A stretch of 42,062 nucleotides of DNA from a virus (taxonomy: Duplodnaviria; Caudoviricetes): the IMG/VR virus record IMGVR_UViG_3300049792_000039, positions 1 to 42,062 of that record, one strand, 5' to 3'. Both the position numbers and the translations under genes were made by a program. The notes beneath the pieces are model-generated. The model did no database searches. It was not told where the DNA came from and was given only the letters and a program-made list of their open reading frames with translations. The stretch's first letter is position 1; every line of letters starts with the position of its first letter. Shown here piece by piece: positions 11,490 through 42,062 of the stretch.

Positions 11490-11923
11490 TGGACTGGAAT
11501 GTGGCAGCACTCAAGCTTGAGGCCATCGCCGAGGGCCTCGGGCTCAACGCGTTGGACTACGTCCCGGACGACCTGCCCAACAAGGCGATCTATGTTGGTG
11601 AGATCGACATTCAGCCCAACCAGGTGATGAACCGTCGTGGGTCGGACGGCTCCCGGATGGGGGTCGACTCGGCGACCGTTACGCTGCGTCTGCTGGTTGC
11701 TAGGTCGGACGACAAGCACGCCATCCGCAAGATGCGCGAGTACATGGCCGGTTCGGGCGAGGATTCACTGATCCAGGCGATCCAGGAGACCAACAACAGG
11801 CACACCGAGTTCCCCTGGTCCGGGATCAAGGTCGTGTCGGCCCGAGGCAACCGGGTGTTTAACGTGGGCGAGGCCAAGTTCTACGGGACCGAGATTGACG
11901 TCTGGATGACAGGAGCGGCATGA
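11489..11923 (+). CDS. Tail terminator / head-tail joining protein
   Basis: Position and size; GEDSLIQAIQ pattern seen in actinophage tail terminators. Confidence 0.65.
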   Translation: MDWNVAALKLEAIAEGLGLNALDYVPDDLPNKAIYVGEIDIQPNQVMNRRGSDGSRMGVDSATVTLRLLVARSDDKHAIRKMREYMAGSGEDSLIQAIQETNNRHTEFPWSGIKVVSARGNRVFNVGEAKFYGTEIDVWMTGAA

Positions 11924-12669: not shown

Positions 12670-12682
12670 AGGAAGGTACCGC

Positions 12683-13102
12683 ATGGCAAACAATCCGATT
12701 GTTCTGCTCGACGCCACGTTTAGTTGCGCGAACAACGACCTGTCCGAGTGGATCAAAAAGATCGAGTTCAAGGACACGTTCGAGACCAAGAAGACCACCA
12801 ACTTCCGGTCCGGTGGGGCGGAGGAGAACAAGGGCGGCCTGGAGTCGTTCGAGATCGGCATCACGTTCAACCAGGACTACGATGCGGGCAAGATCGACGA
12901 GATCATGTGGGCGCTCCGGCGTGGCGTTGTCACGTTCGCCGGTCGCGCCATGCAGTCCGCCGTAACCTCGTCCAACCCGCAGTACTCGGGTAAGTTCGTG
13001 ATGAACGGCTGGACTCCGATCTCCGGTGCCGTTGGTGACGTCGGTGAGGTCGACGTGTCGTTCCCGGGTTCGGGGCCGCTGGTCCGGGCGACCTCCACCT
13101 GA
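12683..13102 (+). CDS. Major tail tube protein
   Basis: Strong RBS, size, SNPQYSG...PISGAVGDV...SFPGSG motif, followed by a hairpin; ends in ATST. Confidence 0.8.
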   Translation: MANNPIVLLDATFSCANNDLSEWIKKIEFKDTFETKKTTNFRSGGAEENKGGLESFEIGITFNQDYDAGKIDEIMWALRRGVVTFAGRAMQSAVTSSNPQYSGKFVMNGWTPISGAVGDVGEVDVSFPGSGPLVRATST

Positions 13103-20440: not shown

Positions 20441-21133
20441 ATGGCAAGTTGGGTGCTAATTCCAGCTCTCAAGTCCCTGTTCGCGGAGTTCGATCGGATC
20501 GCCCCGGGCCGAGACAAGGCGAGCGACGGCAGCATCGGCGACACCGCACACTCACAGGAAGTCTCTGACCACAACCCGGACGAGACTGGTAGTGTGCCGA
20601 TCCATGACGCGGACGGCGTCAACGAGGTCCACGCGATCGACGTGGACAACAACCTCAACGAGTCCGACTTGACGATGGAGAAGGTGGTCCAGTTCTTGTT
20701 GGGTCGCTGCCGCTCCGGTGCCGAGAAGCGTCTTCGCTACATCATTTACAACCGTCGCATCTGGTCGGCATCGTCCGACTGGGTGCAGAAGACCTACACC
20801 GGCACGTCGCCGCACACCGAGCACGCGCACTTCAGTGCGTCGTACACCACATCGTTGGAGGCTTCAACGGCCTCCTGGCATCTGGAGGATATTCTCGTGG
20901 CACTGACTCAAGCGGACAAAGACTACATCGCCAACACGACGACGGCGGCAGCGAACAAAGCCGTGCAGGATGCGGCTCGACAGCTGCGACAGTCGCAGGA
21001 TCCGGGTTGGTCGGATACGGCCGCGCACAATCTGGCCGCCGACGCCGCCAACGCCGCTGCGGGTAAGCACGTTCTCGACTACTGGGGGGACCGCCAGACT
21101 GAGAACCCGGCCCCCGCGACCGCCAAGAAGTAG
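20441..21133 (+). CDS. Endolysin, probable Zn peptidase (M15-like HxxxxD...H)
   Basis: RDKASDGSIGDTAH..SDHNPD..VHAIDVD..YIIYNRRIWS..YTGTSPHTEHAHFS; precedes membrane genes. Confidence 0.8.
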   Translation: MASWVLIPALKSLFAEFDRIAPGRDKASDGSIGDTAHSQEVSDHNPDETGSVPIHDADGVNEVHAIDVDNNLNESDLTMEKVVQFLLGRCRSGAEKRLRYIIYNRRIWSASSDWVQKTYTGTSPHTEHAHFSASYTTSLEASTASWHLEDILVALTQADKDYIANTTTAAANKAVQDAARQLRQSQDPGWSDTAAHNLAADAANAAAGKHVLDYWGDRQTENPAPATAKK

Positions 21134-22218: not shown

Positions 22219-23259
22219 GTGTTCAAGAAGATGCTGGCTGCGCTCGCCGCGACCATCGTCGGGCTGGGGCTGGTTTCGGCTCCCGCGTCCGCTTCCGTTC
22301 CGGACTGGGACAAGAAGCCCGCCGTGTCGCCTCACAGCACCCAGGTGGCCAAGGACTTCCCGTTCCTTGTTTCTCACCAGAGGAAGACCGCTCTCACGCC
22401 GCCTTCCTCCATGGTCGTCCGGGCGTACACCGGTGCTCGTCAGGGAATCGTCTCCACCGGCTTCACCGCTGGCATGAAGGTTCGCGACAACTACTGGGAC
22501 ACGTACGACTACCACAACCTCACCGAGATCTCGGTGCAGGACAACAGCGACAACATCGTCGAGCTGATCTGGGGTCACGGTTCGTGGTGCCCGTCGAGCG
22601 CGACCTGCCTCGCCTCGTTCTACTGGGTGAACGGCGTGGGTGCGTCGAACTACAACGTCGGGTTCGTGGACTACGCGGGCAGCAACCTGAACATGGGCGA
22701 CACGCTGACCGGCACCACCGAAACGACTGGCTGCACGCTCCCGGCCAGCAAGAACGAGCGATTCTCGATCGCGAAGAACACGACTACCGGCGCGTGGATG
22801 CTGTGGGCGGACTTGTGCTACGGTGACTCTACGGCGGGCCAGTGGCTGGGCGAATTCCCGGCGTCGCTGTGGACCTCCTCGGGCGCGTCGTTCACGCAGT
22901 CCGACTTCGTGCAGATTTTCAACGAGACGGCCACCCAGTACAACGCTGGCGGCTCGCCGAACAACGACGGTTACCCGTGCTCGGACCAGGGTGCGTCGCT
23001 GGCGACTTCGGTCTCCGGCACCGGCATGCGGTTCGCGGACATGACACTCACCGGTGTGGCCAACACCTCGGTGAACTTCGTGCCGTACGTGGATTCGACC
23101 GGCGGGTACATCAACTCGGAGATGACCACCCCGGCTCCGGGCAAGTATGGCGCGGCGATCCTGGCGGGACAGCCCGCTGGCAACGCACGCTACATCAACG
23201 CCGGTGGTCTGGCGTTCGGCCCGACCGGCAACACCGTCGGCGGGGCTAACTGCACCTGA
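22219..23259 (+). CDS. Secreted neprosin-family (DUF239) glutamic peptidase-like protein
   Basis: Signal peptide ending ASA; HNLTEISVQ..NIVELIW, FYWVNG..NVGFVDY, WLGEFPASLW, FTQSDFVQIFNETA and PCSDQG parallel actinobacterial neprosin domains, with both catalytic Glu positions kept. Confidence 0.75.
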   Translation: MFKKMLAALAATIVGLGLVSAPASASVPDWDKKPAVSPHSTQVAKDFPFLVSHQRKTALTPPSSMVVRAYTGARQGIVSTGFTAGMKVRDNYWDTYDYHNLTEISVQDNSDNIVELIWGHGSWCPSSATCLASFYWVNGVGASNYNVGFVDYAGSNLNMGDTLTGTTETTGCTLPASKNERFSIAKNTTTGAWMLWADLCYGDSTAGQWLGEFPASLWTSSGASFTQSDFVQIFNETATQYNAGGSPNNDGYPCSDQGASLATSVSGTGMRFADMTLTGVANTSVNFVPYVDSTGGYINSEMTTPAPGKYGAAILAGQPAGNARYINAGGLAFGPTGNTVGGANCT

Positions 23260-25342: not shown

Positions 25343-25424
25343 TCGAGCCGACACCGCCATGCGGTTCGAACAGGCCGCCCCAGGGGAATCCCCCTGGGGC
25401 GGATCCATGTGGTAAAATGGACGC

Positions 25425-25649
25425 ATGACGAAGTTCCGGGTCCAGTACACGTCGGTCAAGCCGGGCGGGGCGCGCGAACGCGAAGACGACATAGTTTACG
25501 CAGGCGACCGGGGTGTCCTGGCGGTTGGTGACTACCTCGATCAGCACAACGTCTGGGCGGCCGACCCGATCGTCGTCACTGAGCACACCCAGTCGGACGG
25601 CATCGGCCGGATCGTCCCAGCGAGCGAATGGGACGTCTGCGAAGACTGA
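25425..25649 (+). CDS. Hypothetical protein (probably leaderless)
   Basis: ATG 6 nt after TAAAAT. Confidence 0.7.
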   Translation: MTKFRVQYTSVKPGGAREREDDIVYAGDRGVLAVGDYLDQHNVWAADPIVVTEHTQSDGIGRIVPASEWDVCED

Positions 25650-25657
25650 ACAGAAAA

Positions 25658-25687
25658 CGGCCCCCGTTTCACGTGAAACGGGGGCCG
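25658..25687. promoter_or_regulatory. parS: parS site inside the identical 30-bp palindrome
   Basis: Core GTTTCACGTGAAAC at 25666-25679; lies between convergent genes. Confidence 0.88.
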
Positions 25688-25714
25688 CTCTGTACCCGGT
25701 GACGTGGTCGTTTA

Positions 25715-26110
25715 CTACTGGACGCGTTTCGCCGGGTCGTTGATGCGCTCGCGACTGGTGCCCCAGTCGTTCGCCACGATGCGGTGCTTCTCGACCGGCG
25801 CGCGGTCCGGCTCGTCGACGAAGTGGCCGTCCTCGGTGATGGCGCGACCCGACACCGCGTCGTGGTAACCGGCCTGGTTGACCACACGGCGGGGGTCGTC
25901 GCCGAGGACGTGCTCCGCCCCTTCGATGACCTCAGGCGTGCCGACCGGGCCGGTGCTGTGGTTCGCTGCCCCGGTCGGGTTCGCGTCCGACTGCAGGGGG
26001 CCGGGGGTTCCCGGGGTCGTTTGCTCGACGGTCGCCGGGCTGTCTCCGCCGGTCGTGTTCGCCTTGCTGTCGTCGGTCGTGCTCGTTTTGTTGTCGCGTG
26101 CGGTGGGCAT
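25715..26110 (-). CDS. Hypothetical low-complexity protein
   Basis: RBS GGGAGG; MPTARDNKTSTTDDSK...; Thr/Pro/Gly-rich. Confidence 0.7.
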   Translation of the reverse strand: MPTARDNKTSTTDDSKANTTGGDSPATVEQTTPGTPGPLQSDANPTGAANHSTGPVGTPEVIEGAEHVLGDDPRRVVNQAGYHDAVSGRAITEDGHFVDEPDRAPVEKHRIVANDWGTSRERINDPAKRVQ

Positions 26111-26190
26111 GTCGCCTCCCGAGTAGGGGGTGTGGATCCGTCCGATTAGCATACCACCGGCAGCGACCCAGCGCACGCGGACGGGTAAAC

Positions 26191-26298
26191 TTCCTAGGAC
26201 ACTAGGAAATCGAAGCGCTTCGACGGGAAAGCGCTTGCCTAAATCGATCACGAGGAGTGATGCCGGCCGTCACCTCGAGTAATGTGGCGTACGTCACA
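26191..26298. promoter_or_regulatory. Cluster of operator-like palindromes (unassigned IR, 2 LacI-like, 2 BldD-like, 1 CRP-like)
   Basis: TTCCTAG-N4-CTAGGAA; TCGAAGCGCTTCGA; GGAAAGCGCTTGCC; TCAC-N5-GTGA; TCAC-N5-GTAA; TGTGG-N6-TCACA. Confidence 0.6.
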
Positions 26299-26385
26299 CG
26301 GAGATGGCTTGTGCCGGGGGGTTCAATACGGTAGAATTCTTCTTAGAGGGCGAGGGAAACGAGCCCCAGACGGAAGAAGGCCCAA

Positions 26386-26931
26386 ATGCAGATCACCACC
26401 AAGCAGCTCCCGTGCTACTGCCGCTCCTTCGAGTTCGGCGAGTTCGATGGCGAGAACGAGAACGCCGTCAGCTACGACACCGACTGCGACCAAGTCACCA
26501 CCCGGGTTTTTGCCCAGGGTCACGACGCCAAGCTGGCGGGGTTCCTGGTCCGGGCCGAGATGGCAGGCGAGGAGATCCGCGTGGTCGAGGGCGGCGTCGC
26601 GATCAGCGGAGACGCCCGGTCGATGGCGCGCCGGGTGAGTGAGCCCTTTGAGGCCAAGGTGGTCGCCCTGATCGACGCCGCCCGTCGTCGGGTCGCCAAG
26701 AAGGCCCTCGCGGACGCCACTAAGGCCGCCCGCAAGTCGGCTAAGACCGCCGAGCGCAAGCTCGCCGAGGACGCCGGGGTGGTCGTGAAGCTGGCACCGA
26801 TCGAGGCCCGGATCAAGGTTGGCCGGTGGGAGTACGACGCCCAGATCGACCGGGACACCCGCGAGGCGACTTACGCGGGCAAGCTGGGCGGGAGCAAGAC
26901 GGTGGCGGAGGGCAAGTACTCGGTCCTGTGA
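26386..26931 (+). CDS. Hypothetical protein, paralog of 24650..25342
   Basis: PCYC...DC...FAQGHDAKL..FLV and RIKVGRWEY. Confidence 0.8.
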   Translation: MQITTKQLPCYCRSFEFGEFDGENENAVSYDTDCDQVTTRVFAQGHDAKLAGFLVRAEMAGEEIRVVEGGVAISGDARSMARRVSEPFEAKVVALIDAARRRVAKKALADATKAARKSAKTAERKLAEDAGVVVKLAPIEARIKVGRWEYDAQIDRDTREATYAGKLGGSKTVAEGKYSVL

Positions 26932-27026
26932 CGGACTTCACACGCCGGGGGGATTCCCCCCGGCGTCTCCGTCTGGTAAAATTGAATTTAGAGGGCGGGG
27001 GGACCGCCCACAACGAGGAGGACGAG

Positions 27027-27203
27027 ATGGCGAACGAAATCGGGACCCAGGCCAAGGAGCAGAACGTCCGGGTCTACCAGATGAGCGGCGAGGAAGTCGA
27101 GATCACCGTCCAGTACCCAACCAGCGAAACCCCCCTCCTGTTCGCCCTCAGCAACGCCGAGGCCAAGGCTCTGATGATCGCCCTGGCGCGGGTGCTAGCC
27201 TGA
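27027..27203 (+). CDS. Small hypothetical protein (58 aa)
   Basis: Follows a repeat module and RBS; MANEIGTQAKEQ... Confidence 0.75.
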   Translation: MANEIGTQAKEQNVRVYQMSGEEVEITVQYPTSETPLLFALSNAEAKALMIALARVLA

Positions 27204-27293
27204 ATCGACCGCCCCGGGGGGATTCCCCCCGGGGCTCCGGTGTAGTAGAATTGTATTGTAGGGCGGGGGACCGCCCAGGACGAGGAGGACGAG

Positions 27294-27590
27294 ATGGACA
27301 TCAACCAGGCAGCGAACCGACTGGGGATCCCGGCTAAGACGGCGTCGCCCAGCGAGGTCCGGGACGCGCTGGCGGCGATGCTGAACCGGCTCAACCACGA
27401 CGTCGACGGCGACCAGGACATCCAGGACGGCCATGTCCGGTTCGGGGAGCACGTCGCGGTGATGGGGCTGGCGGGTGACCTCGACCCCGTGTTCGAAGCG
27501 GCGCTGGACACGATGTCCTGGGACGACCCGGCGGCAGCCAACGCTGTCGAGCGCATCGGGATCCAGGTGGTCCGGTCGCGTTTCCTGTGA
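27294..27590 (+). CDS. Hypothetical protein
   Basis: Follows a repeat module and RBS. Confidence 0.75.
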   Translation: MDINQAANRLGIPAKTASPSEVRDALAAMLNRLNHDVDGDQDIQDGHVRFGEHVAVMGLAGDLDPVFEAALDTMSWDDPAAANAVERIGIQVVRSRFL

Positions 27591-27679
27591 AGTGCCCGGG
27601 GGGTTGTGGCGGACCCTCCGGTCTGATAAAATTGAATTAACGGGGCGGGGGGTCCGCCCATCAACCGAGGAGGACAAAA

Positions 27680-27856
27680 ATGGCAAGGAAGCGCGACGCG
27701 GCCAGCCCGAAAACCGGCGACGGCCGGACCAAGGGAGCGCCGATCCAGGGCAAGAACGTGGTCTTCCGGACCAGCGGAGGCAAGGCGACCGGCTCGGGCG
27801 AGAGCGCCGTTGCCAAGCTCATTCGGCTGGCAGCCGAACGGCTCGCCGGGAAGTAA
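27680..27856 (+). CDS. Small basic protein (58 aa, not in ORF track)
   Basis: GAGGAGG RBS; MARKRDAASPKTGDGRTK...LAAERLAGK. Confidence 0.7.
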   Translation: MARKRDAASPKTGDGRTKGAPIQGKNVVFRTSGGKATGSGESAVAKLIRLAAERLAGK

Positions 27857-27950
27857 TTCAGGTCACACGGGCCGGGGGGGGTTGTGGCGAACCTCCCGGC
27901 CTGGTAAAATTGAATTTAGAGGGCGGGGGGACCGCCCGGGAGAGGACGAG

Positions 27951-28118
27951 ATGGAAACCACCCCGAAGGCGCTGGCGGAGATCCTGGTGGCGGCAATGAA
28001 GGCAGCCGGAGCGACGGTGACCTACGTTAACGCCAGCGACGTCGGACGGGACGGTTTCTTCTACGCGACAATGCCGGATGGGATGGTCACCACCATCCGC
28101 GTCGAGATCAACGACTGA
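27951..28118 (+). CDS. Small hypothetical protein
   Basis: METTPKALAEIL...; follows a repeat module. Confidence 0.75.
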   Translation: METTPKALAEILVAAMKAAGATVTYVNASDVGRDGFFYATMPDGMVTTIRVEIND

Positions 28119-28135
28119 AGAACGAGGAGGACGAG

Positions 28136-28342
28136 ATGGAACGCATCGCCGTGGTGGACTTTCCGGACGACCGGGAGTCGGTCGCCCTCTGGCACACCGG
28201 CCCTGACCCCGACACCATTTACGCGGACATCCAGAGTGCCTTCGAGGCTGAGGGCTTCGACACGATCACCCTCTTTGAGACCAGCGCCGCTGAGGTCGCC
28301 CACATCAACCTGGAGGGCCTGGCATTCCTGCCCCACCTGTGA
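28136..28342 (+). CDS. Small acidic hypothetical protein
   Basis: RBS ACGAGGAGGACGAG. Confidence 0.75.
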   Translation: MERIAVVDFPDDRESVALWHTGPDPDTIYADIQSAFEAEGFDTITLFETSAAEVAHINLEGLAFLPHL

Positions 28343-28402
28343 CCTAAACCACACCGCCCGGGGGGATTCCTCCCGGGCGGTTTCATATGGTAAAATTGTA
28401 TT

Positions 28403-28870: not shown

Positions 28871-29269
28871 CTACGGGGTCTCGGGGGGCTCCGGCGTCTC
28901 GATCAAGGCGTTCAGTGCCTCGATCTCGGCCACCCGGACCGGACGGTCGTCTTGACTGATCTGGTAAAGCCTTTCCTTTGCTATGCGGCGCAGGGCAGGC
29001 GACGGCGGGCCCGCGCTACCGTCAATCGGCCAGCCGTAAAGGGTGGGGACCGTCGTCGGTGCCTCCAGGCGAGCCCGTGGAACCGGCATCGGCTCCGGCA
29101 GCATCAGGAACTCGGCGAGCTTGACTACTGCGTCGGCGCGCTCCGGGCCGGTCATCGGGCGGTACCCGTCGACCTTGTACCCACGCCCGTTCACCTCGGT
29201 GCTGCCCATCTTCTCGACCAGCTCGAAAGCCGTCTTGAGAGCGCTCTCTCGGTTCATCGCTCCGCTCAT
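28871..29269 (-). CDS. Hypothetical protein
   Basis: Last gene of the leftward purZ operon. Confidence 0.65.
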   Translation of the reverse strand: MSGAMNRESALKTAFELVEKMGSTEVNGRGYKVDGYRPMTGPERADAVVKLAEFLMLPEPMPVPRARLEAPTTVPTLYGWPIDGSAGPPSPALRRIAKERLYQISQDDRPVRVAEIEALNALIETPEPPETP

Positions 29270-29339: not shown

Positions 29340-30248
29340 TCAGCGTCCCGAGCTGCCGTAGCCGTTCAGCCCACGCTCGTGCTCCGGCAGTTCGTCGACC
29401 GTCTCGATCCCGCCCCCGAAAACCGGCAGCAAAATAAGCTGCGCCAGCCGGGTCCCGGCCTGCCAATACTGCGTATTGCGGGATTCGTTCTTCAGCATGA
29501 TTATCAACTCCCCACGGTAGCCCGAGTCGATGACCCCCGGCTGGGTCCGGCACTGGTACTGTCGCCACGTCGACGACCGGCCCGTGATCAGACCGAAGTA
29601 TCCCTCCGGGATGGCGACGTGAACGCCGGTGGGCAGGGAACGGGACTCTCCGGCTGGGATGTGCTCCTCCCCCGAAATCGCCAGGTCGATTCCCGCATCC
29701 CCCCGGTACCGGCCTGTGGTTAGGTTCGCTGCCCCGTCCTTGAGTACCTGCAATACCGGCGGGGCGGCTACGGCGATGGGCAGGCAAGGCTTTTCCTCCT
29801 GGAAGTGGGCGGCGAGGCCGGGAGCCGATTCGATTAGGAACTGGAACGTCTCGGGTACAGGCCAAACGAACTCGGGGTCGGCCATGTTCATGATCATCGC
29901 CCCCCGGCGCGTCCAGGCAGCGACCTGGACCGAGTGGCCGATGTCGGTGAAGATCACGACCGGCTTCCGCATGGACAGGGCGAACTCGATCTCGACGGGT
30001 GTGCCCAAGGTCGGCACGTCCGACGGCAGGACCGCGATTAACGCGTCGGCCTGGTGGATGGCGATGTTGTTGAGGTCGTTGATGCGCTCGACGTGGTCCG
30101 AGGTGCTAGTGTTGGCGAGATACGCCATGCCGGGTCGGAACGCGCCGATCCCAGCCTGAACCAGCAGAGTGTTGAGGTCGCCGAGCATGGACCCGAGCCA
30201 GGAGCTGTGACCGGCCAGGTCAATCGGGTGGGCGAGGTAGACGAACAA
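29340..30248 (-). CDS. Fusion of a nucleoside 2-deoxyribosyltransferase/dNMP N-glycosidase-like domain and a trimeric dUTPase-like domain
   Basis: N-term VYLAHP...ADALIA...GTPVEIEFA...KPVVI; C-term AGIDL, GRSS, GVIDSGYRGE, RLAQLI, RGLNGYGSSG. Confidence 0.88.
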   Translation of the reverse strand: MFVYLAHPIDLAGHSSWLGSMLGDLNTLLVQAGIGAFRPGMAYLANTSTSDHVERINDLNNIAIHQADALIAVLPSDVPTLGTPVEIEFALSMRKPVVIFTDIGHSVQVAAWTRRGAMIMNMADPEFVWPVPETFQFLIESAPGLAAHFQEEKPCLPIAVAAPPVLQVLKDGAANLTTGRYRGDAGIDLAISGEEHIPAGESRSLPTGVHVAIPEGYFGLITGRSSTWRQYQCRTQPGVIDSGYRGELIIMLKNESRNTQYWQAGTRLAQLILLPVFGGGIETVDELPEHERGLNGYGSSGR

Positions 30249-30277
30249 GGGTAGACCTTCCTAGGTGGTGGCGCCCC

Positions 30278-30291
30278 GTTTCACGTGAAAC
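30278..30291. promoter_or_regulatory. parS: Third parS site
   Basis: Perfect GTTTCACGTGAAAC in a short intergenic gap within the purZ operon. Confidence 0.85.
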
Positions 30292-30307
30292 GGAGCGGCC
30301 GGAGTTG

Positions 30308-30724
30308 TCAGGCTTGCGGGTTGTCGCGGATCGGTCGCGGGCGCACCACGGTGGACGTGCGTTCGTCGCGGCTGGCAATCTCGGTGGGGCGTACCTTGGC
30401 CTGGAGGCGCTCCTCGCGGGTGCCGGTTGGCAGGTAGCCGAGGAACGAGTCGAGGTACTCGTAGACCTCACTGAGCCACCCGTCGCGGAGGCGGAAGTCG
30501 CGGCTGTCGACCCACTCGCGGTTGGTCAGGCCGCCGTGCTTGCGAATCCGCATCTCACCGCCGGAGAAGGCAAACGAGACGACGCATTTCGGCTCGGCGT
30601 TGGTCTCCAGCTCCTCGGGTCGACCGGGGATGGTGTGCATCCGGTAGCGGGCGATCAGCCGTGCTCGGGTGATCGAGATGAAGCGATCGGGTGCGCTGAC
30701 CTCAGCGAAATGAGCGGTGGTCAT
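30308..30724 (-). CDS. Hypothetical protein in the purZ operon
   Basis: ATGA overlap with the upstream gene; RBS AAGGAGG. Confidence 0.7.
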   Translation of the reverse strand: MTTAHFAEVSAPDRFISITRARLIARYRMHTIPGRPEELETNAEPKCVVSFAFSGGEMRIRKHGGLTNREWVDSRDFRLRDGWLSEVYEYLDSFLGYLPTGTREERLQAKVRPTEIASRDERTSTVVRPRPIRDNPQA

Positions 30725-31347
30725 TCGGTTTCCTCCTTGATGCCGGGCCAGCCGCCGGATTCCCGGACGCGCTGGGCCATGCGGACGTAGATTCCGATGT
30801 CGAGCATGGTGTCCTCCGACACCTGGCGACCTTCCATGATCGCAGACCGCCAGCGGGCCAGCTTGCCTTCGATGTAGAAGTAGATGCCCAGTTCGGCTGC
30901 CACCGCGTCGGTAGTCGGTTGCTGTCCCGTCAGCCGGAGGAGGTTGGTCCCGATATCGACCAGGTCCGTCGAGCCGTATTCAACGGCCTTGGCGACCGTC
31001 TGCTCGATCTCGCTCTCGGCTTTGGCACGCCACCAGTCGGCCAGCCGGTCGGCGGGGGTCGGAGGTAGGAACGGCGGAGTGGTGAACATCTGCCCCGCGT
31101 TGGTGATCAGGTCAGCCCAGGCGTGGGGCGGGAGCGGGTCGGAGGCGAGTCCGGCGATGGCAGGCAGCTCCTCCGCCCTACCATCGGTGTACCAGGCGAG
31201 TAGTTCGGTTCGATTGTAGTGGCGCTCGTCGCCGGTGTCGTTGTGCCGCTTGGGTCGCTCGCACTGGACACGAACGCTGAGATTGCGAGGGTTTTTGATG
31301 GTCTTGCGGCACCGGGTGGTGGTGCCGTCGGCCATGAACGGGTTCAC
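30721..31347 (-). CDS. DUF1599/Nmad1-like all-alpha (MazG-like) protein with an N-terminal Cys/His motif
   Basis: KAVEYGS...KLARW...EDTMLDIGIYVRMA pattern; translationally coupled to purZ. Confidence 0.6.
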   Translation of the reverse strand: MNPFMADGTTTRCRKTIKNPRNLSVRVQCERPKRHNDTGDERHYNRTELLAWYTDGRAEELPAIAGLASDPLPPHAWADLITNAGQMFTTPPFLPPTPADRLADWWRAKAESEIEQTVAKAVEYGSTDLVDIGTNLLRLTGQQPTTDAVAAELGIYFYIEGKLARWRSAIMEGRQVSEDTMLDIGIYVRMAQRVRESGGWPGIKEETE

Positions 31348-32378
31348 AGGTCCACCACCGTCTCCGGTCCGGTGCCGACGTAATCGATGTTGATTTCAAG
31401 GCGCTGCTCCAGGTCCTCGACGAACTCCATGGCGTGCGGGTCGTCGAGGGTGGTCCGGTCCTTTACCGTGGGGAACTTCTGATCCAGCATGGTCAGGGCC
31501 ATACCAACCCGGGGGTTGAAGTTGCCTCCGCCGTTGGCGGCAATGGCTTCGATCACGAGGTCCTGGTCCCACTCTCCGACCCGCCGGACCTTCTGGGTGA
31601 CCGTGGTCCGCTCGATCGGCAGGCCGAGGTCTTCCCAGGTCGTCTCGCCCTTGAGCGGGCCGGACGGTCCGGCGACCCGGATGGGGTAGATTCGTGCGAC
31701 CAGGATCACGTCCAACTCGCCGATCCACTCCGCCCAGGGGCTGATGCCGCACATTGCGAGGAAGTCCACTGCTCGGCAGTCGCTGCTGGTCACCGTCGGG
31801 TAGAACGGGGTGTGCAGCCCGAGGCCGTAACCCTGGGTGCCCTCGATCACGACCTTGTCGTACGTCCCGAAGTCCATGTCGTAACCGCAGTCGTCGAACA
31901 ACCACCGGGCCAGGGTCGGTGACGACATGGCGGTGTCGGCTTCGCGCATGATCCGGGCCGCACGGGCGGCACCGATGCCCTTGCCCGTCGAGCCGATTCG
32001 CCCGACCAGGCCCATCGACTGCTCGTCGCCGATGTACTTCGGGTGCAGGATGGTTGCTGCGGGGCTGATCGTCAGACGGCTGCTCACGTTGAAGCCCGCG
32101 TCGTCCAGGTCTTGGATCTCGCCGATCAGGACCTCGGTGTCGATCTCCGACCCGGACGCGATGTGCAACCGGCAGTTCGAGCTGGTCACGGCAGCGACCG
32201 GCACAGCACGGAGCTTCCACTCCCGGTGGTTGGCATCGTAAGCCGTGTGACCGGCGTTGGGGCCTGCAACCCGCACGGCGATGTCGTCGCCGAACATCTC
32301 CTTGCCCAGGTGACCGGCGATGGCCCCCTTGCCTTCGGAGCCGAACTGTGCTCCGACGACTACGGTAACGTGCGTCAT
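31344..32378 (-). CDS. purZ: PurZ0-type 2-amino-deoxyadenylosuccinate synthase (PurA paralog)
   Basis: GAQFGSEGKG (Ser in place of the PurA Asp), RVAGPNAGH, GSTGKGIG, IEGTQGYGLGLH, PIRVAG.SG, ERTTVT.K.RRVG, TMLD (GTP-type), GTGP. Confidence 0.9.
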   Translation of the reverse strand: MTHVTVVVGAQFGSEGKGAIAGHLGKEMFGDDIAVRVAGPNAGHTAYDANHREWKLRAVPVAAVTSSNCRLHIASGSEIDTEVLIGEIQDLDDAGFNVSSRLTISPAATILHPKYIGDEQSMGLVGRIGSTGKGIGAARAARIMREADTAMSSPTLARWLFDDCGYDMDFGTYDKVVIEGTQGYGLGLHTPFYPTVTSSDCRAVDFLAMCGISPWAEWIGELDVILVARIYPIRVAGPSGPLKGETTWEDLGLPIERTTVTQKVRRVGEWDQDLVIEAIAANGGGNFNPRVGMALTMLDQKFPTVKDRTTLDDPHAMEFVEDLEQRLEINIDYVGTGPETVVDL

Positions 32379-32429
32379 GCATCCTCCATGTGGGGTGAAC
32401 CGACCGCCCAGCGACGGCCGATGGGGACT

Positions 32430-32474
32430 ATCTTATACTGCCACTTGCCTGGCTGTCAAGTGGCATGCTAGACT
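32430..32474. promoter_or_regulatory. Overlapping divergent purZ/purB promoters with an operator-like inverted repeat
   Basis: Minus strand TTGACA-N18-TAAGAT (32459-32430); plus strand TTGCCT-N18-TAGACT (32445-32474); IR TGCCACTTG-N9-CAAGTGGCA (32439-32465). Confidence 0.65.
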
Positions 32475-32481
32475 CTGCGGC

Positions 32482-33696
32482 ATGATCCCACGATATTCCG
32501 ATTCCCTGGTCGACCGACTCTACTCAGACGAATGGACGTTCGACGCGTGGCTCGGCATCGAACGCGCCGCGCTGGCCGCGCAGATCCAGAACGGTGTGGT
32601 CCCCGAAGAGGCCAGGCTGCTCTGGCGCTGGCTGGAGAAATGCCACAGCGATGAGGAGACGGCGAGCTGGATCCGGGTCCTCGAACGAACCGAGACCCAC
32701 CATGACGTGGCGGCGTTCCTGAAACACTGGCGCATGGCGCGCGGCCAGGACGACGCGAAGTGGCTGCACTACGGCCTGACGTCGTCTGACCTTGTGGATA
32801 CCACCCAGGCGCTGCGGTTCCGGCGGTTGCACGTCGAGTACCGCGATCGTGCTCAGGAGCTGCTGTCCGCGATCCTGCGGTGGACCGAGGTGGACCAGCC
32901 GATGCTGGGTCTGACTCACGGTCAGCCGGGGGAGCCGACCTCCATCCGGGCGCGCGCGTTCGGATGGATCGCCGAGATCGAGCACGGTCTGCAGGCGGTC
33001 AGCCGACAGAACCGGGCGATGCAGGTGATGAAGCTGTCCGGCCCGATGGGCACGTTCGCCCACAACCCGCCCGAGGTGGAGGCCACGGTGGCGATCGAGC
33101 TGGGGTTGATTCCGATGGGGGCAGGTGCGACCCAGATCTTACCTCGGTCGGCTCTGTCACTGTGGGCCTCTTCTTGTGCCGCGCTGGTCGCTGCTTGCTC
33201 CAAAGTCGCCCACGATCTGCGGCTTCTCAATTCCAGCGACGAGCTGTTCTGGCCTCGGGCCGGTGAGCACGTCGGGTCATCGGCGATGCCGCACAAGAAC
33301 AACCCGATCGAGGCGGAGCAGGTTCGGGGGATGGCCCGGCTCGCCCGGGGCTACGCTGCCGCGCTGGAAGCCGACCCGCTGTGGCTGGAGCGTGACATCT
33401 CCAACTCCAGCGTGGAGCGGGTTGCCGTACCCGACCTGTGGCACACCGTCTTCCACGCCATGAAGCTGACCACCCGTGCGTTGACCGACATGGAACTGCG
33501 CCCCCTGGTCATCGAGGAGCGTCTGATGAACCGGGCAAACGAGGCTTGGTCGCACAAGACGACGTTGATGGCCATCGCTGACGGCGAGTCCTACGATGAG
33601 GCGCGGGAGTTCGGGCGCGAGGTTCAGATTGAGTCGTACGACATCCTGGAAGACGCGCGATGGTTCACGCGCCAGTATCCGAAGGCCAAGCAGTGA
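32482..33696 (+). CDS. purB: Adenylosuccinate lyase
   Basis: MIPRYS, THHDVAAF, HYGLTSSDLVDT, THGQ, KLSGPMGT, GSSAMPHKNNP, WLERDISNSSVER. Confidence 0.93.
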   Translation: MIPRYSDSLVDRLYSDEWTFDAWLGIERAALAAQIQNGVVPEEARLLWRWLEKCHSDEETASWIRVLERTETHHDVAAFLKHWRMARGQDDAKWLHYGLTSSDLVDTTQALRFRRLHVEYRDRAQELLSAILRWTEVDQPMLGLTHGQPGEPTSIRARAFGWIAEIEHGLQAVSRQNRAMQVMKLSGPMGTFAHNPPEVEATVAIELGLIPMGAGATQILPRSALSLWASSCAALVAACSKVAHDLRLLNSSDELFWPRAGEHVGSSAMPHKNNPIEAEQVRGMARLARGYAAALEADPLWLERDISNSSVERVAVPDLWHTVFHAMKLTTRALTDMELRPLVIEERLMNRANEAWSHKTTLMAIADGESYDEAREFGREVQIESYDILEDARWFTRQYPKAKQ

Positions 33697-34457: not shown

Positions 34458-35951
34458 ATGCCGTTGAGCGACCCAGGTGCCGTTGTCCTGAAGAACCGGC
34501 TGACCGACCAGCAACAGGCCATCGTTGACGCGGTCCGCGACGGGAGCAGCAAGGTCGTCGCTGAGGCGCTGGCCGGAACAGGCAAGACGTCCACCCTGGT
34601 GGCGCTCGCTGCCATGCAGACCCGACGCCCCGGAATCTATCTCGCGTTCAACAAGAGCGTGCAGATCGAGGCGCAGTCCCGGTTCCCCGACTGGATCCAC
34701 TCGACCACTGCCCACGGTTACGCCTACCAGGCCGTCGGCAAGCAGTACGGTCACCGTCTTCCGGGCAACCAGGCAGCGAGCCGCATGGGAGCCAACGCGA
34801 TGGCCCGGATGATGAAGGTGAAGCCCGCGCTGCTGGACACCGGGACCATCAACCCGGTGCACCTGGTTCGGATGGCACAGGCAACTGTCAACAACTTCCT
34901 GAAATCGGCTAGTGCGGAGATCTGGGGGCAGCACATTCCTGCCCGTTGCTACGCCGACCACAACCCGACTGCCATCGCGGATGCGGTGCTGCCCGTGGCT
35001 AACCGGATCTGGGCTGACCTGCAGTCCAAGGACGGCAAGTTCCGCTTCACCCACGATGCATATTTGAAGATGTGGCAGCTGACCAACCCCCGCCTCCCAT
35101 ACGACTACATCATGTTCGACGAGGCACAGGACGCCGACCCGGTAATCGCCTCGGTGGTGAACGCCCAGGCCAACACCCAGCGGATCTGGGTTGGCGACCG
35201 GCACCAGGCGATCTACGGTTGGCGTGGGGCGGTCGACGCGATGAGCCCTGCGGCGATTCCGGATGCGGTCCGGCTGCCCCTCACCCAATCGTGGCGGTTC
35301 GGTGAGGCGATCGCAGACGAGGCCAACAAATGGCTCCATATGCTCGGCGCGCAGCACATGGTCGAGGGCAACCCCGGTATCAGTTCGACGATCGGCGATG
35401 TGGAGGTCCCGTCGGCCATCTTGTGCCGGGGCAACGGGACCGCACTCGGCTGGGTGTTGAAGTTCCACCAGATCGGGCTTCCGGTTTGTCTGGCCCCCGG
35501 AGACAAGAGCGCAGGCAAGGACATCGAGAAGTTCGCCTGGGCAGCCAAGTCGCTGATGAACGGTGAGGGCACCGACCACCCCGACCTGATCGGCTTCCAG
35601 ACCTGGGACCAGCTGGTCAAGTACGTGGCGGAGGAAGAGGACACCGACGACCTGAAGCGCATGGTCGGGATCATCAACCAGGTCGGCATCAGCGCGGTGA
35701 TCGACGCGGTCCGGGGTTGCACCACCAAGGACAAGGCAGTGGTTTCGGTCGGGACCGCCCACAAGGCTAAGGGGATGGAGTGGTCGACGGTCCGGGTGGC
35801 TGACGACTTCGTCCCGCCGGAGCCGCCCGAGGACGGCAGCCCGGCCGCCCCCGACTACGAGGGCATGATGTTGAACTACGTGACGGTGACTCGTGCGATC
35901 GACCGGATCCAGCTCGGCGCGTTGGCGGAGCCGGGGTTGTGGGACTGCTAG
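34458..35951 (+). CDS. UvrD/Rep-like SF1 helicase
   Basis: ALAGTGKT, YLAFNK, FDEAQD, VGDRHQAIYGWRGA, LTQSWRFG, TAHKAKGMEW, YVTVTRA. Confidence 0.93.
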   Translation: MPLSDPGAVVLKNRLTDQQQAIVDAVRDGSSKVVAEALAGTGKTSTLVALAAMQTRRPGIYLAFNKSVQIEAQSRFPDWIHSTTAHGYAYQAVGKQYGHRLPGNQAASRMGANAMARMMKVKPALLDTGTINPVHLVRMAQATVNNFLKSASAEIWGQHIPARCYADHNPTAIADAVLPVANRIWADLQSKDGKFRFTHDAYLKMWQLTNPRLPYDYIMFDEAQDADPVIASVVNAQANTQRIWVGDRHQAIYGWRGAVDAMSPAAIPDAVRLPLTQSWRFGEAIADEANKWLHMLGAQHMVEGNPGISSTIGDVEVPSAILCRGNGTALGWVLKFHQIGLPVCLAPGDKSAGKDIEKFAWAAKSLMNGEGTDHPDLIGFQTWDQLVKYVAEEEDTDDLKRMVGIINQVGISAVIDAVRGCTTKDKAVVSVGTAHKAKGMEWSTVRVADDFVPPEPPEDGSPAAPDYEGMMLNYVTVTRAIDRIQLGALAEPGLWDC

Positions 35952-37429: not shown

Positions 37430-38203
37430 ATGCCGCTAAGCGCTCCAGAGGGGCCGCACCCGTTCAGCCGAGAAATCCTGACGATGGTGCGGGAGTACGA
37501 CGCGAGCCGACCTCGCTCGATGCAGAAACACCTTGGTCCGTCTGAGATTGGGACACCGTGTGACCGGCAGCTCGCCATGAAACTGGCGGGTCTGCCAGAG
37601 GTGAATCAGGTCGCGGATCCTTGGTTCCCGATCGTCGGGTCGGCGGTCCACGTGTTCATGGCCGACATGATCACGTGGTACAACGACGTGTATCTTGGTC
37701 GAGCCCACAACCCTCGCTTCATTGCGGAGAACCGGGTCACGGTCAAGGCCGAGAACGGCGGGTACGACACCGCTGGATCAACTGACGTGTACGATGTGGA
37801 CGAGGAACGGGTGGTCGACTGGAAGATCGTCGGCAACACCACGATGCGGAAAGTCAAAACGGGGACTACACCGTTGGAACGAGTCGGACCGCAATACTAC
37901 GTACAAACCATGACTTACGGCAAGGGGTGGGTGCAGGCCGGATACCGAGTTAAGTCGACCCTCATTGCATTCCTGCCCCGGTCGAACTTCCTGAAGAATA
38001 TGCAGCTGGTCGAGATGCCGTTCGACCCGGCGGCAGCCGATAAGGCGCAAGCGAGGGTGGCAGCGATCGACCAGCTGCGGCAGGTGATCAAGCCGCACGA
38101 CTTCCCCGCTGGGGGCTGCACCGTGTGGTGTCCATTCTACCGGCCAAGTGTGCCGTTGGGTGCGACTTCGTGCCCCGGGCATGGCGATGTTAAGGACGAG
38201 TGA
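37430..38203 (+). CDS. Cas4/RecB-like PD-(D/E)xK exonuclease
   Basis: LGPSEIGTPC, GSAVH, GSTDVYD, VVDWK, Q...YG, CTVWCPFY...C. Confidence 0.88.
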   Translation: MPLSAPEGPHPFSREILTMVREYDASRPRSMQKHLGPSEIGTPCDRQLAMKLAGLPEVNQVADPWFPIVGSAVHVFMADMITWYNDVYLGRAHNPRFIAENRVTVKAENGGYDTAGSTDVYDVDEERVVDWKIVGNTTMRKVKTGTTPLERVGPQYYVQTMTYGKGWVQAGYRVKSTLIAFLPRSNFLKNMQLVEMPFDPAAADKAQARVAAIDQLRQVIKPHDFPAGGCTVWCPFYRPSVPLGATSCPGHGDVKDE

Positions 38204-39304: not shown

Positions 39305-41779
39305 ATGACAATCGAACTGGCCTTGGAATGGGCGGCCTTGGGCTGTCGCGTTCTCCCAGTCAACGGCACCAATAAAAGGCCCCTGGTTAAGGCATGGCAG
39401 GAGGTCTGCACCACCGATGTTGATCAGATCAGACTGTGGTGGACCCAATACCCGCAAGCTCGGGTCGGCATCGCAACCGGCCAGCCGGGGTACGACGTCC
39501 TCGACTTCGACGTGGCAGATGGGAAGCCCGGTCTTGCACAACTTGAGAAGCTCATCGACCTCGGGATCATCGAGCCTGGGACGTTTTGGGTCGCTGCTAC
39601 CCCGTCCGGCGGTCGACACCTGTGGTTTCGTGGCACAGCACAGCGCAATAAACAAAATGACAAGTCCGTACCTGGCGTTGACTTTCGAGGCGTCGGTGGG
39701 ATGGTTTTGGTTCCGGGTAACCCCGGTTATCGCTGGGTCTCGGGACGCAGTACGCTTCCCGATGGCCTTAAGGCTGTCGAATGGGATTCCGTGGTACGAG
39801 CGCTCGTGGAGCCTGTACCAGCGCCGGAGCCCAGTCGAGTTCTGGTTAGTGCCCCAAGGCCAGCAACTCCGGTAGCGTCGTTCGGTAAGCTCTCGGCACC
39901 GTTGCAGTATGGCAACGATCCGGGTGAAGAGTCGCCACTCGACTGGTACGTCCGCAACAACGACCTAAACGACCTGCTCCGGCGGGACGGCTGGACATGG
40001 ATGTACGAACACGGCGGCAGGCAATACTGGTGCCGACCAGGTAAAGAGCCACGCGACGGGGCGTCGGCTAACGTCATGATCAACCCCAACGACGGCCGCC
40101 AGACGCTGATGAACTTCAGCACCAGTGTGGACCTGCCAACGGACCAGGGATTGAGCGCCGCCCAATACTACGCCTACCGGGAACACGGCGGAGACGTCCG
40201 GCAGGCGGCACGAGAGATTCGCCGCACGATGATGCCCCAGCGTCAGCCCGCGAATCGGCAGACGGCAGGGGGCACGACGGCACCGGCGGTATCGTCCGGT
40301 ACTCCCGCAGCCACACGGAGCGCCGAACTGGTCCCAGCGGGGGCGCATACACCCGACCACATCCGGAACTTCTGGGAGGCGCGTCCGGAGCTGCGGGAAG
40401 TGTGGTGGCAGTCCCAGGTCAGCGACACGTCGCCCTGGGCGGTACTGGGGACGATTTTGGCTTGCGTCGCGGGCAGGGTGGGGCCGCATGTGCGGATCCC
40501 ACCGAAAGGTGGAGTCGGAGCGGCAGCGAGCCTGAACATTCTGGTAGCCATCAGTGGCGACTCTGGTGAAGGCAAAGGTGTTTCGGGTCAGGTGGCGAGG
40601 CAGTTCATGGGCGCACCCTACCCGCCCTGGAGGAAACCCGGCACCGGGCAGGGCATCGCTGCGATCTACACCGAACAGACCAAGGAAGGGCCGGTCCAGT
40701 CGAATGATACAGCAATACTCAACGTCACCGAGATCACTCAGCTCGGTGCCCACATGGATCAACGGGGGGCCACGATCACATCGACCCTCCTGGAAGTCTA
40801 CATGGGAGAAGAACTCGGGGAGCATTACGCGAACAAGGAGCTACGCCGTCCGGTGCGAGAAGGCCAGTACCGCCTTGCGCTCGTTGCAGGCGTTCAGCCG
40901 GACAATGCTGGGATCATTTTTGACCATGCAGCAAGCGGCCTTCCTCAGAGGTTTGTATGGATGCCCGCTTATTGGCGGGACGCAGTTTTGCCAGAAGGCC
41001 TACTTGAGCCACCTGCACCGGGGTCCGCTCTCCGCAAGTGGCACGGCTGGTCGCAGATCCATCCGGGGACGCTCGACGAGACGCTCCAGGTCGCGGACGA
41101 CTGGACACCCACCTCTGGACTCGCCTCGCCTGAGAAGGGCAAGAAGAAAGCCGAGCCCGAGGCGGTTCCTGCTCCAAGTAAGGACGAACTCCTGGTTACG
41201 TATTCGCCTCGGGTTGCTCGGGAGATCGGGCTCGACCAGCGGCGGCGGCGCAACGAGATCAAGAGGAAAAAAGACGCTGGGGAGGTCACAGCCGACCCCG
41301 ACTCTCACATCCTGCTCACAAAAATCAAGGTAGCGACGCTGCTGGCGATCTGGCTCAACGGCACCACCCACATCGACGATGGGATGTGGAACCTGGCGGG
41401 GGTGCCCATCTGGATCAGCAACCAGACCCGGATCGAGGCTCACAACCGGATCCTCAGGAAGGGGGCCGATAAGAACGCAGCTCGGGCGCAGGCCATGGTC
41501 GCCCAAAAGGAGATTGTCAACGAAGCGGAGGAACGCAAGCACAAGGCTGTTTACATCAGAGCACTGGATCGGGCGTTGCATTTGCTGGTGACGGCGGGGG
41601 ACTGGCAATCGATCAGTCAGATTCGCAAGCGCATGTCCGGTGACGAGAAAAAAGCCATGAAGATGGCGGAGGTCGACCTGGCTGACGTGCTGGGTGACCT
41701 GGAGATAGCCCACAAAGTCGAGAGCAGAGAACCCGAAGGGACCGAGCAGGGTGGCAGATTCAGAGCAGTGGCCGTTTAG
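39305..41779 (+). CDS. Bifunctional DNA primase/polymerase (Prim-Pol) fused to a helicase-like domain
   Basis: VLPV..KRPLVKAWQ, ARVGIATG, VLDFD, TPSGGRHLWF, GVDFRGVGGMV; C-terminal Walker A GDSGEGKG, SGLPQRF. Confidence 0.9.
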   Translation: MTIELALEWAALGCRVLPVNGTNKRPLVKAWQEVCTTDVDQIRLWWTQYPQARVGIATGQPGYDVLDFDVADGKPGLAQLEKLIDLGIIEPGTFWVAATPSGGRHLWFRGTAQRNKQNDKSVPGVDFRGVGGMVLVPGNPGYRWVSGRSTLPDGLKAVEWDSVVRALVEPVPAPEPSRVLVSAPRPATPVASFGKLSAPLQYGNDPGEESPLDWYVRNNDLNDLLRRDGWTWMYEHGGRQYWCRPGKEPRDGASANVMINPNDGRQTLMNFSTSVDLPTDQGLSAAQYYAYREHGGDVRQAAREIRRTMMPQRQPANRQTAGGTTAPAVSSGTPAATRSAELVPAGAHTPDHIRNFWEARPELREVWWQSQVSDTSPWAVLGTILACVAGRVGPHVRIPPKGGVGAAASLNILVAISGDSGEGKGVSGQVARQFMGAPYPPWRKPGTGQGIAAIYTEQTKEGPVQSNDTAILNVTEITQLGAHMDQRGATITSTLLEVYMGEELGEHYANKELRRPVREGQYRLALVAGVQPDNAGIIFDHAASGLPQRFVWMPAYWRDAVLPEGLLEPPAPGSALRKWHGWSQIHPGTLDETLQVADDWTPTSGLASPEKGKKKAEPEAVPAPSKDELLVTYSPRVAREIGLDQRRRRNEIKRKKDAGEVTADPDSHILLTKIKVATLLAIWLNGTTHIDDGMWNLAGVPIWISNQTRIEAHNRILRKGADKNAARAQAMVAQKEIVNEAEERKHKAVYIRALDRALHLLVTAGDWQSISQIRKRMSGDEKKAMKMAEVDLADVLGDLEIAHKVESREPEGTEQGGRFRAVAV

Positions 41780-42038
41780 CCTAGACAATGAGAATGACCT
41801 GATCATGGTTCGCACGATCAGCGGACGGGTCGTGAAAGCTGGGGACTTGGCAGATGGGTACCGTCGCCTCGACCAGGTTCTACATGTAGTCCCCGCCGAC
41901 CAGCCTGGCGCTGTCGGCCATGCCGTCGAAGTCGCCCGCTGGAGAGACGATGACGACAACCGGGAGCTAGAAATCGAGGTTATCCGCTGGGAGGCTGTGG
42001 AGAGCATCGTGTGGAGAGATCCGAAACGCAAACGGTAG
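41751..42038 (+). CDS. Hypothetical protein
   Basis: Overlaps the end of the primase gene; start uncertain. Confidence 0.55.
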   Translation: MADSEQWPFSLDNENDLIMVRTISGRVVKAGDLADGYRRLDQVLHVVPADQPGAVGHAVEVARWRDDDDNRELEIEVIRWEAVESIVWRDPKRKR

Positions 42039-42044
42039 TAGTGT

Positions 42045-42059
42045 GGGAGGGTGGGCGGG
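42045..42059 (+). other. Canonical G-quadruplex motif
   Basis: GGG-A-GGG-T-GGG-C-GGG at the contig end. Confidence 0.7.
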
Positions 42060-42062
42060 CTC

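Follow-up and report, generated by a model that had tools for sequence, protein, structure and literature searches.

The described gene systems closest to the one analysed here are those of the Z (2-aminoadenine) phages Wayne, Ghobes and Archimedes. In Wayne and Ghobes, DutZ has been characterised as a dATP/dGTP/dUTP diphosphatase and DmtZ as a dAMP hydrolase (PMC12884076). According to Poubanne et al. 2026 (PMC12884076), the Wayne fusion, like the pair of unfused Ghobes proteins, turns dATP into dAMP and then adenine and turns dGTP into dGMP, and DmtZ is also able to transfer deoxyribose phosphate onto free Z. All 98 PurZ0 genomes surveyed in that work carry dutZ, 85 carry dmtZ, and 77 have the two fused (PMC12884076). 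A 2025 preprint describes Wayne-like genomes without DatZ and MazZ. We analysed a PurZ0 gene cluster at positions 29340-33696 of IMG/VR record IMGVR_UViG_3300049792_000039, a linear soil phage contig of 42,062 bp and about 64% GC that was examined whole (record G000, called the window below). Most of this cluster is the known PurZ0-DutZ-DmtZ system. We assign a probability of roughly 0.6 to the reading that the phage DNA would be mostly or wholly Z-substituted through control of the nucleotide pool, with a non-selective polymerase and no Z-selective one.

The PurZ0 gene cluster

The purZ0 gene (31344-32378, minus strand) encodes a 344-residue 2-amino-adenylosuccinate synthetase of the PurZ0 branch. 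The original prediction had recognised a PurA paralog with GSEGKG (Asp-to-Ser) and TMLD motifs and had assigned it to PurZ0. Both statements hold: Ser14 lies in GSEGKG, TMLD occupies residues 296-299 with an Asp299 of PurZ0 type, and the protein scores 327 bits on the NCBIfam PurZ model NF038379 (cut-off 300). PurA models give 60-208 bits, every one under its own cut-off. Replacement of the catalytic Asp of PurA by Ser is the published PurZ criterion (PMC12884076). The best PDB match is the Archimedes enzyme 7VF6 (E 5e-71), and identity is 43-49% to five cultured PurZ0 proteins versus 28-36% to PurZ. In a FastTree phylogeny that comprised 73 sequences and used four phiVC8-type PurZ as root, after removal of loci whose purZ was truncated or duplicate, the window enzyme groups among PurZ0 (Archimedes/Ghobes/Wayne), apart from phiVC8-type PurZ. 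Among PurZ0-like sequences Ser14 is present in 68 of 69 and Asp299 in all 69; at the latter position four of four PurZ have Asn. The TMLD motif also occurs in archaeal PurA. PurZ0 reportedly uses GTP, as Tong et al. are said to have found in 2023. The window enzyme probably also uses GTP with dGMP, because it combines S14 with the D299/TMLD common to archaeal PurA; the sentence on PurZ0 GTP use in PMC12884076 reads the opposite way. ATP-using PurZ carry Asn or Gln at the NTP-base position where PurZ0 has the Asp, a role described for N297/Q308 (PMC8342488).

A direct search of viral contigs for PurZ0-bearing relatives found none, and relatives were instead gathered by alignment of the helical domain encoded behind purZ0 (see below), which yielded 80 IMG/VR loci. 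Eight of the 80 are syntenic with the window; in seven of these eight the sequence extends into purZ0, and these seven join the window in a single clade (support 0.975). As previously described for the window, purZ0 heads a minus-strand run, followed by a 208-amino-acid gene, a 138-amino-acid gene and a dmtZ-dutZ fusion, with purB divergent. Across the seven relatives the entire module retains its gene order, at PurZ0/PurB identities of 43-74%, which argues for function; the PurZ0 module is real, conserved and almost certainly functional. Some loci are rearranged: purB lies directly behind the helical-domain gene in L075 and L076, and purZ0 is inverted and downstream of dut in L082.

The purB gene (32482-33696, plus strand, 404 amino acids) encodes an adenylosuccinate lyase (PF00206, E 7e-24) for which TIGR00928 is the best NCBIfam model, below its cut-off; the lyase motifs are kept with Hiyaa and Ghobes PurB. 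Its start is most likely the ATG at 32482. A start at 32320 was rejected, as this longer open reading frame (ORF) overlaps purZ0 and the purB and purZ0 starts lie about 100-135 bp apart in the seven relatives. Phage purB is already known, being annotated in Ghobes, Archimedes, Sapo, Frizzle, Hiyaa, Keanu, Galactica and Spocter. Upstream of purZ0, on the minus strand at 32430-32459, is a sigma70-type promoter match (TTGACA-18-TAAGAT, 10 of 12 positions). The search that found it gave three sites against 0.6 expected, and the purZ0 site is a consensus match only.

The dmtZ-dutZ fusion (29340-30248, minus strand, 302 amino acids) has the domains of the predicted NDT-dUTPase protein, an N-terminal NDT-family part (PF05014, E 1e-6) resembling dAMP hydrolases/transferases and a C-terminal dUTPase-fold part (PF00692, E 2e-23) resembling diphosphatases. 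It matches published DmtZ-DutZ and is 31-34% identical to the Wayne and Hiyaa fusions. Five of the six named residues of Ghobes DmtZ are kept in the window protein: Y4/D10/P39/N60/E86 align with Ghobes Y6/D12/P57/N77/E103 and are present in the window and in eight of eight relatives. By analogy, the window DutZ would hydrolyse dATP and dGTP but spare dZTP. A dut gene is present in 83 of 85 PurZ0-type loci.

No HD protein was found in the window with PF13023, with PF01966 (positive in a DatZ-bearing control) or in tblastn searches with two DatZ-type proteins, in agreement with the original prediction. The missing DatZ is expected, because all 98 surveyed PurZ0 phages carry dutZ. The accompanying suggestion that adenine is excluded by different enzymes stands insofar as DatZ is not involved; the enzymes in question, DutZ and DmtZ, had already been described (PMC12884076). 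Likewise, tblastn with three MazZ/DUF550 proteins gave nothing in the window or its relatives at E 0.05; a PF04447 profile search missed its positive control.

The 208-amino-acid protein encoded directly behind purZ0 (30721-31347, minus strand) has a C-terminal four-helix domain of about 105 residues (approximately 30745-31050) belonging to a PurZ0-linked unnamed family. The domain matches Ghobes gp51, Archimedes gp51, Hiyaa gp68 and a Parvaparticeps gene, each directly behind purZ0, and is found in the same place in Microbacterium phages. Across the 80 IMG/VR loci, purZ0 ends at most 900 bp upstream of the helical-domain gene in 77, the other three being cut by contig ends. The family is sharply bounded (917 of 948 clusters at 50% identity match its profile at E 1e-10 or better). 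It occurs in 31 cultured phage records, none of them from Arthrobacter, though 105 Arthrobacter records match PurZ. Only two matches were found in genome_contigs (L128, L129), on Verrucomicrobia and Gemmatimonadales contigs of metagenome-assembled genomes with PurZ0 nearby; these are possibly phage contigs binned with those genomes. Highlighting the helical-domain gene as a core gene of PurZ0 loci is new.

Several observations bear on the role of this domain. First, the corresponding slot in Wayne holds DUF5664, a demonstrated dATP/dGTP/dUTP diphosphatase (PMC12884076), and DUF5664 (PF18909), found in Wayne, is present in none of 33 records that carry the helical domain. Second, all 213 homologues compared have K120, E123, Y124, K162, R165, D183, Y187 and R193 unchanged, and the conserved acidic residues are E113, E123, D128, E152, D179 and D183. 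Third, the domain is modelled as four helices (pLDDT 90) and as an antiparallel homodimer, with a score of 0.74 where the best control reaches 0.01. The runs share 96% or more of their contacts and have pLDDT of 86 or higher; the dimer mark is reached by 20 of 30 solved pairs and one of 23 single chains. The gene had been called DUF1599-like. A distant resemblance survives in the ESM Atlas, where the domain aligns to a DUF1599 cluster with TM 0.71 over 95 residues, below the tool's bar for family naming, and in weak Foldseek matches to DUF1599/DUF6378 proteins (TM about 0.5, E 0.2). Family membership does not: neither the 208-amino-acid protein nor the domain by itself matches DUF1599 (PF07659) in Pfam at E 0.1. 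Searches of the PDB by Foldseek and by sequence gave nothing for the domain, and nothing relevant on a link between DUF1599/Nmad1 and Z-DNA was found in the published literature. Our best guess, with odds that we put a little short of even, is that the domain is a further dATP/dGTP pyrophosphohydrolase in the slot of Wayne DUF5664; a PurZ0 partner or regulator is the alternative role.

Polymerase search and replication module

No DNA polymerase of families A (PF00476), B (PF00136) or C (PF07733) was found in the near-complete window (92% by CheckV, linear record). A DpoZ-1 profile built from five proteins found nothing better than E 3.3 in 4724 six-frame segments of the window and its seven relatives; a partial control polymerase scored 1e-13. 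Family A polymerase (PolA) is also absent from the seven PurZ0 relatives (Pfam), and five of five cultured PurZ0 phages tested carry it. The lack of family A and B polymerases noted originally is thus borne out, and the absence of DpoZ proves to hold throughout the lineage.

A Prim-Pol domain fused to a DUF3987/P-loop region (39305-41779, plus strand; PF09250 E 3e-27, PF13148 weak, PHROG primase/polymerase) is the sole polymerase-type domain that the searches detected in the genome; the original prediction did not mention it. DFD at 67-69, H106 and D126, which we take to be the Prim-Pol motif residues, are present. The C-terminal part is 38% identical to the primase/polymerase of the PurZ-less Gordonia phage Santhid, and no PDB sequence match was found, solved S-2L PrimPol included. 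The replication module further includes a UvrD-like helicase (34458-35951, plus strand; Pfam, PHROG) and a Cas4-like exonuclease (37430-38203, plus strand; PHROG) with 31% identity to Santhid gp38.

The contig breaks behind the Prim-Pol gene in an inverted-repeat region whose left arm (42033-42062) continues at 1-238, with copies of the repeat motif at 44 and 221 and reverse copies at 205 and 42043. This region is a candidate replication origin. Converging direct and inverted short repeats are also found behind the Prim-Pol gene in G001, G004, G005, G006 and G007, with a unit that differs per phage. In the first four of these, only 604-667 bp separate the Prim-Pol stop from a helix-turn-helix gene, which lies at 611 in the window, and positions 86-699 of the window align to G005 starting 71 bp behind its Prim-Pol stop. 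The window also spans the HNH-terS junction where relatives end. There is therefore no room for a polymerase gene, because the break sits in a short repeat region bridged in relatives and the junction is covered.

The trait extends beyond this clade. No PolA was found in 22 of 42 records searched, or in 10 of 19 among records at least 90% complete, and searches for families B and C came up empty in 23 records, the window among them. Another clade without PolA (support 0.999) contains G039, a closed genome of 32 kb that encodes a Prim-Pol, an AAA_25 protein, purB, PurZ0, the helical gene, DmtZ and DutZ. Members of this L040-L084 group (G035, G036, G039) have 52-60% GC and 32-35 kb and lack polymerases of families A, B and C. 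Larger PurZ0 phages of 73-81 kb (G010, locus L015; G013; G031) also lack all three families; among 99 ORFs of the closed 81-kb G010 no polymerase was recognised, whereas several glycosyltransferases and an epimerase are present. We found no PurZ0 phage without DpoZ in the published literature, although the Fig. 5 map of PMC12884076 may show such genomes, and PMC8342488 names S-2L as the only Z phage without PolA. The absence of DpoZ-1 across several uncultured PurZ0 lineages is new. More speculatively, and on balance doubtfully, about half of the uncultured PurZ0 phages sampled, in at least two well-supported clades, might make Z-DNA without a Z-selective polymerase, with the host replicase copying a fully Z genome and the helical family helping as an overlooked, dATP-destroying core enzyme.

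Z content and the proposed route to Z-DNA

The proposed route begins with the nucleotide pool. Judged by conserved residues and by the activities shown for the Wayne and Ghobes homologues, DutZ would act on dGTP and dATP, yielding dGMP and dAMP, and cleavage of dAMP to adenine by DmtZ would block re-phosphorylation. PurZ0 would link aspartate to dGMP, and S14 and D299 suggest that it probably does so with GTP; phage PurB would release dZMP. Host kinases would complete dZTP; no kinase was found in the window genome. The helical dimer may act as an extra dATP/dGTP pyrophosphohydrolase in the DUF5664 slot. The Prim-Pol/helicase would open and prime the origin adjoining its gene, and copying from the altered pool would fall to a polymerase blind to A versus Z, most likely the host replicase. 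The host replicase is favoured over the Prim-Pol because the same protein type serves the PurZ-less, polymerase-less Santhid, and because the N-terminal domain differs in G007, a circularly complete member of the clade with direct terminal repeats. In G007 the primase-helicase (L101:13771-16758) has the clade's C-terminal region and an unrelated N-terminal domain without a Pfam match. The module is thus independent of one particular Prim-Pol.

Published background agrees with parts of this route. The S-2L PrimPol is without A/Z selectivity and the S-2L genome is nevertheless fully Z (PMC8065100), E. coli enzymes incorporate Z (PMC8342488), and natural dZ-DNA has so far been reported only as complete substitution (PMC13128860).

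Other observations weigh against the route or lend it no support. Restriction-site avoidance was compared between the window plus its seven relatives and 14 PurZ-less phages that share the lysin-like gene described below, using the dZ-blocked sites of PMC12944874 Table S1. The relaxed avoidance of dZ-blocked sites that dZ protection would predict did not show: the fraction of such sites with an observed/expected ratio (O/E) under 0.3 is 0.07 in the clade versus 0.06 in controls, and O/E is 0.74 versus 0.84, in a comparison where clade members are not independent data points and lifestyle is not controlled for. In E. coli plasmids, Z-clusters without DpoZ give 9-28% Z versus about 40% with DpoZ (PMC12944874), and the S-2L triad gives 12-23% Z in E. 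coli (PMC8342488). S-2L relies on DatZ, which the window phage lacks, and use of the host replicase is suggested by absence only. The lid residue W124 of Ghobes DmtZ, a Trp also in Wayne, Archimedes and Hiyaa, is Val in the window, which weakens one-to-one transfer of DmtZ specificity; this residue has been modelled, not mutated (PMC12884076). Similar letters in dUTPase motifs II and III occur in an ordinary dUTPase, and these motifs neither separate DutZ from ordinary enzymes nor reveal a specificity for dATP. Finally, the VIA fold matches of the helical domain are within noise, both to MazG 1VMG (Z 5.3, rmsd 3.2, 70 aligned) and to 2P06 (AF_0060; Z 6.0, rmsd 3.3, 84 aligned), the latter presumably MazG-like.

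The same comparison also yielded a difference in GC-only 6-mers, which the clade avoids more (fraction under O/E 0.3 of 0.44 versus 0.14, p 7e-4; the caveats on relatedness and lifestyle apply here too). A post-hoc difference for CTGCAG (under 0.3 in none of eight versus seven of 14) was set aside, since Hiyaa and Parvaparticeps contradict it.

The competing explanation that fares best, although we consider it unlikely, is that the same enzymes, without DpoZ and DatZ, produce mixed A/Z DNA with partial substitution only. The 9-28% Z of heterologous clusters without DpoZ would fit this, as would the lack of an HD dATPase in the window and the lineage's strong avoidance of A-containing sites such as GAGCTC and CTCGAG, which confirmed-type PurZ0+DpoZ phages avoid likewise. 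However, the E. coli percentages include pre-induction DNA and involve no phage takeover, DutZ and DmtZ together take dATP fully to adenine in vitro (PMC12884076), and the record of natural dZ-DNA cited above is of complete substitution, achieved by S-2L without DpoZ (PMC8065100).

It is improbable that the Prim-Pol of the phage serves as replicase with an evolved preference for dZTP, which would make it a third independent kind of Z-selective polymerase. It is the sole polymerase-type domain in the genome, its presumed motif residues look intact, and the second PolA-less clade also has a Prim-Pol (G039). Against this, proteins of the same kind occur in PurZ-less phages (Santhid, for example), primase/polymerases accompany DpoZ in Wayne, Ghobes and Archimedes, G007 manages with another N-terminal domain, and the S-2L PrimPol lacks A/Z selectivity (PMC8065100).

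Still less credible is a module that alters the purine pool of the host or produces a different modified purine, with no Z entering DNA. The operon does hold an unnamed conserved domain and a lineage-specific gene, and glycosyltransferase and methyltransferase genes are present at 8634-10888. However, the latter sit among head genes and occur also in PurZ-less phages, the helical domain lies behind purZ0 in Ghobes, Archimedes, Hiyaa and Microbacterium phages too, and all diagnostic PurZ residues are standard. A polymerase gene lost from the assembly or too divergent for detection can practically be dismissed: the record is linear, 92% complete and unjoined at its ends by one run, but the break is bridged in relatives (G005), G007 is closed, the DpoZ profile is negative, and the longest gene-like ORF without a family label has 346 codons and a signal-peptide-like start.

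The preferred reading, a Z genome obtained by pool control, makes testable the standing question of whether DpoZ is required for a Z genome or pool control is sufficient; S-2L is the sole polymerase-less case found in print, and it uses DatZ. A five-gene cassette giving high Z with cellular polymerases would aid Z-DNA production in cells, for which clusters without DpoZ reach 9-28% (PMC12944874). The helical domain is open to assay, since Ghobes, Archimedes, Hiyaa and Goodman, all cultured phages, carry it.

Neighbouring features and comparison with known systems

Two small genes accompany the cluster. The 138-amino-acid protein (30308-30724, minus strand) is lineage-restricted, being present in seven of eight syntenic relatives and in none of 72 other loci, and has no Pfam, PHROG, NCBIfam or usable Atlas match. 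A 132-amino-acid gene (28871-29269, minus strand), without a family match and in the same position in four of the seven relatives covering the region, is probably the tail of the purZ0 operon. Between the 138-amino-acid gene and dmtZ-dutZ is a parS-like palindrome (30278-30291), found in the same place in the relative G002. This perfect actinobacterial palindrome, identical to the M. smegmatis parS given in PMC7022226, occurs three times in the window (23282, 25666, 30278), two copies being inside longer GC hairpins. It is present in four of the seven relatives, in none of the 14 PurZ-less controls and once in the examined half of Wayne; ParA/ParB gave no match in the window.

The plus strand of the window encodes terminase, portal, protease, capsid and tail genes, followed by a small-gene block (Pfam/PHROGs), the minus-strand Z cluster and the replication module. 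Pfam scans of 91 ORFs and PHROG scans of 75 revealed no integrase. Reads of one soil run, possibly the source of the record, neither joined nor extended the window ends. Contigs of this run break at 2061-2069, upstream of terS, where the relatives' contigs also end; this is likely the cos end of the genome. The lysin-like gene (20441-21133), so labelled from its position and from a peptidoglycan-binding domain in its G007 counterpart, matches several Actinoplanes/Paractinoplanes proteins at 82-89% identity along roughly three quarters of its length, and the host group is therefore likely Actinoplanes-like.

Several further features were observed. At 8634-10888, between capsid and head-tail adaptor, are a glycosyltransferase, a CmcI-like methyltransferase and a second glycosyltransferase-like gene, kept in the clade and partly in PurZ-less phages, which presumably resemble virion glycosylation cassettes. 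Two adjoining paralogous major-tail-like genes (11920-13102) have a common 88-nt repeat. A 44-nt repeat occurs six times at 25381-28402 in front of small genes, each copy ending in a TAAAAT/TAGAAT-like sequence, and these are probably phage early promoters. The 346-amino-acid protein (22219-23259), without a family match and with a signal-peptide-like start, is found in only some relatives at differing positions, and by eye we take it to be neprosin-like.

Set beside the all-alpha NTP pyrophosphatases of the DUF1599 (Nmad1)/DUF6378 and MazG-like kinds, the helical domain may resemble them in its modelled four-helix fold, its predicted antiparallel dimer and its motifs of the K-x-x-[ED]-Y-G and D-T-x-x-D-x-x-x-Y type. 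The helical family differs in being sharply bounded and in having no Pfam match and PDB fold matches within noise.

The window cluster resembles those of Wayne, Ghobes and Archimedes (PMC12884076) in its PurZ0 residues S14 and D299, its lack of DatZ and the order purZ0-accessory gene-dmtZ-dutZ. The fused DmtZ-DutZ is shared with Wayne and Hiyaa, and the phage purB with Ghobes, Archimedes and Hiyaa, as is the helical gene behind purZ0 (Ghobes gp51, Archimedes gp51, Hiyaa gp68). Unlike the PurZ0-DutZ-DmtZ(-DUF5664-1)-DpoZ-1 system, the window has no DpoZ-1, no DUF5664 and an extra 138-amino-acid gene, and unlike the three phages it has purB head-to-head with purZ0. Its virion genes also differ from theirs (closest cultured capsid proteins 30-38%), as does its likely Actinoplanes-like host.

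Santhid likewise combines a Cas4-like exonuclease, a primase/polymerase and HNH genes with no annotated DNA polymerase; it is temperate and lacks a PurZ cluster, whereas the window has no integrase match. Like S-2L, the window combines a Z pathway with a primase-polymerase that is joined to a helicase-like region and has no polymerase of family A, and selectivity in both would stem from the nucleotide pool. The enzymes differ, with PurZ, MazZ and DatZ in S-2L and PurZ0, DutZ/DmtZ and its own PurB in the window, and the window Prim-Pol (PF09250) has no sequence match to the solved S-2L PrimPol. If the preferred reading is true, a different enzyme set would achieve S-2L-like pool control in Actinobacteria, probably with the host replicase.

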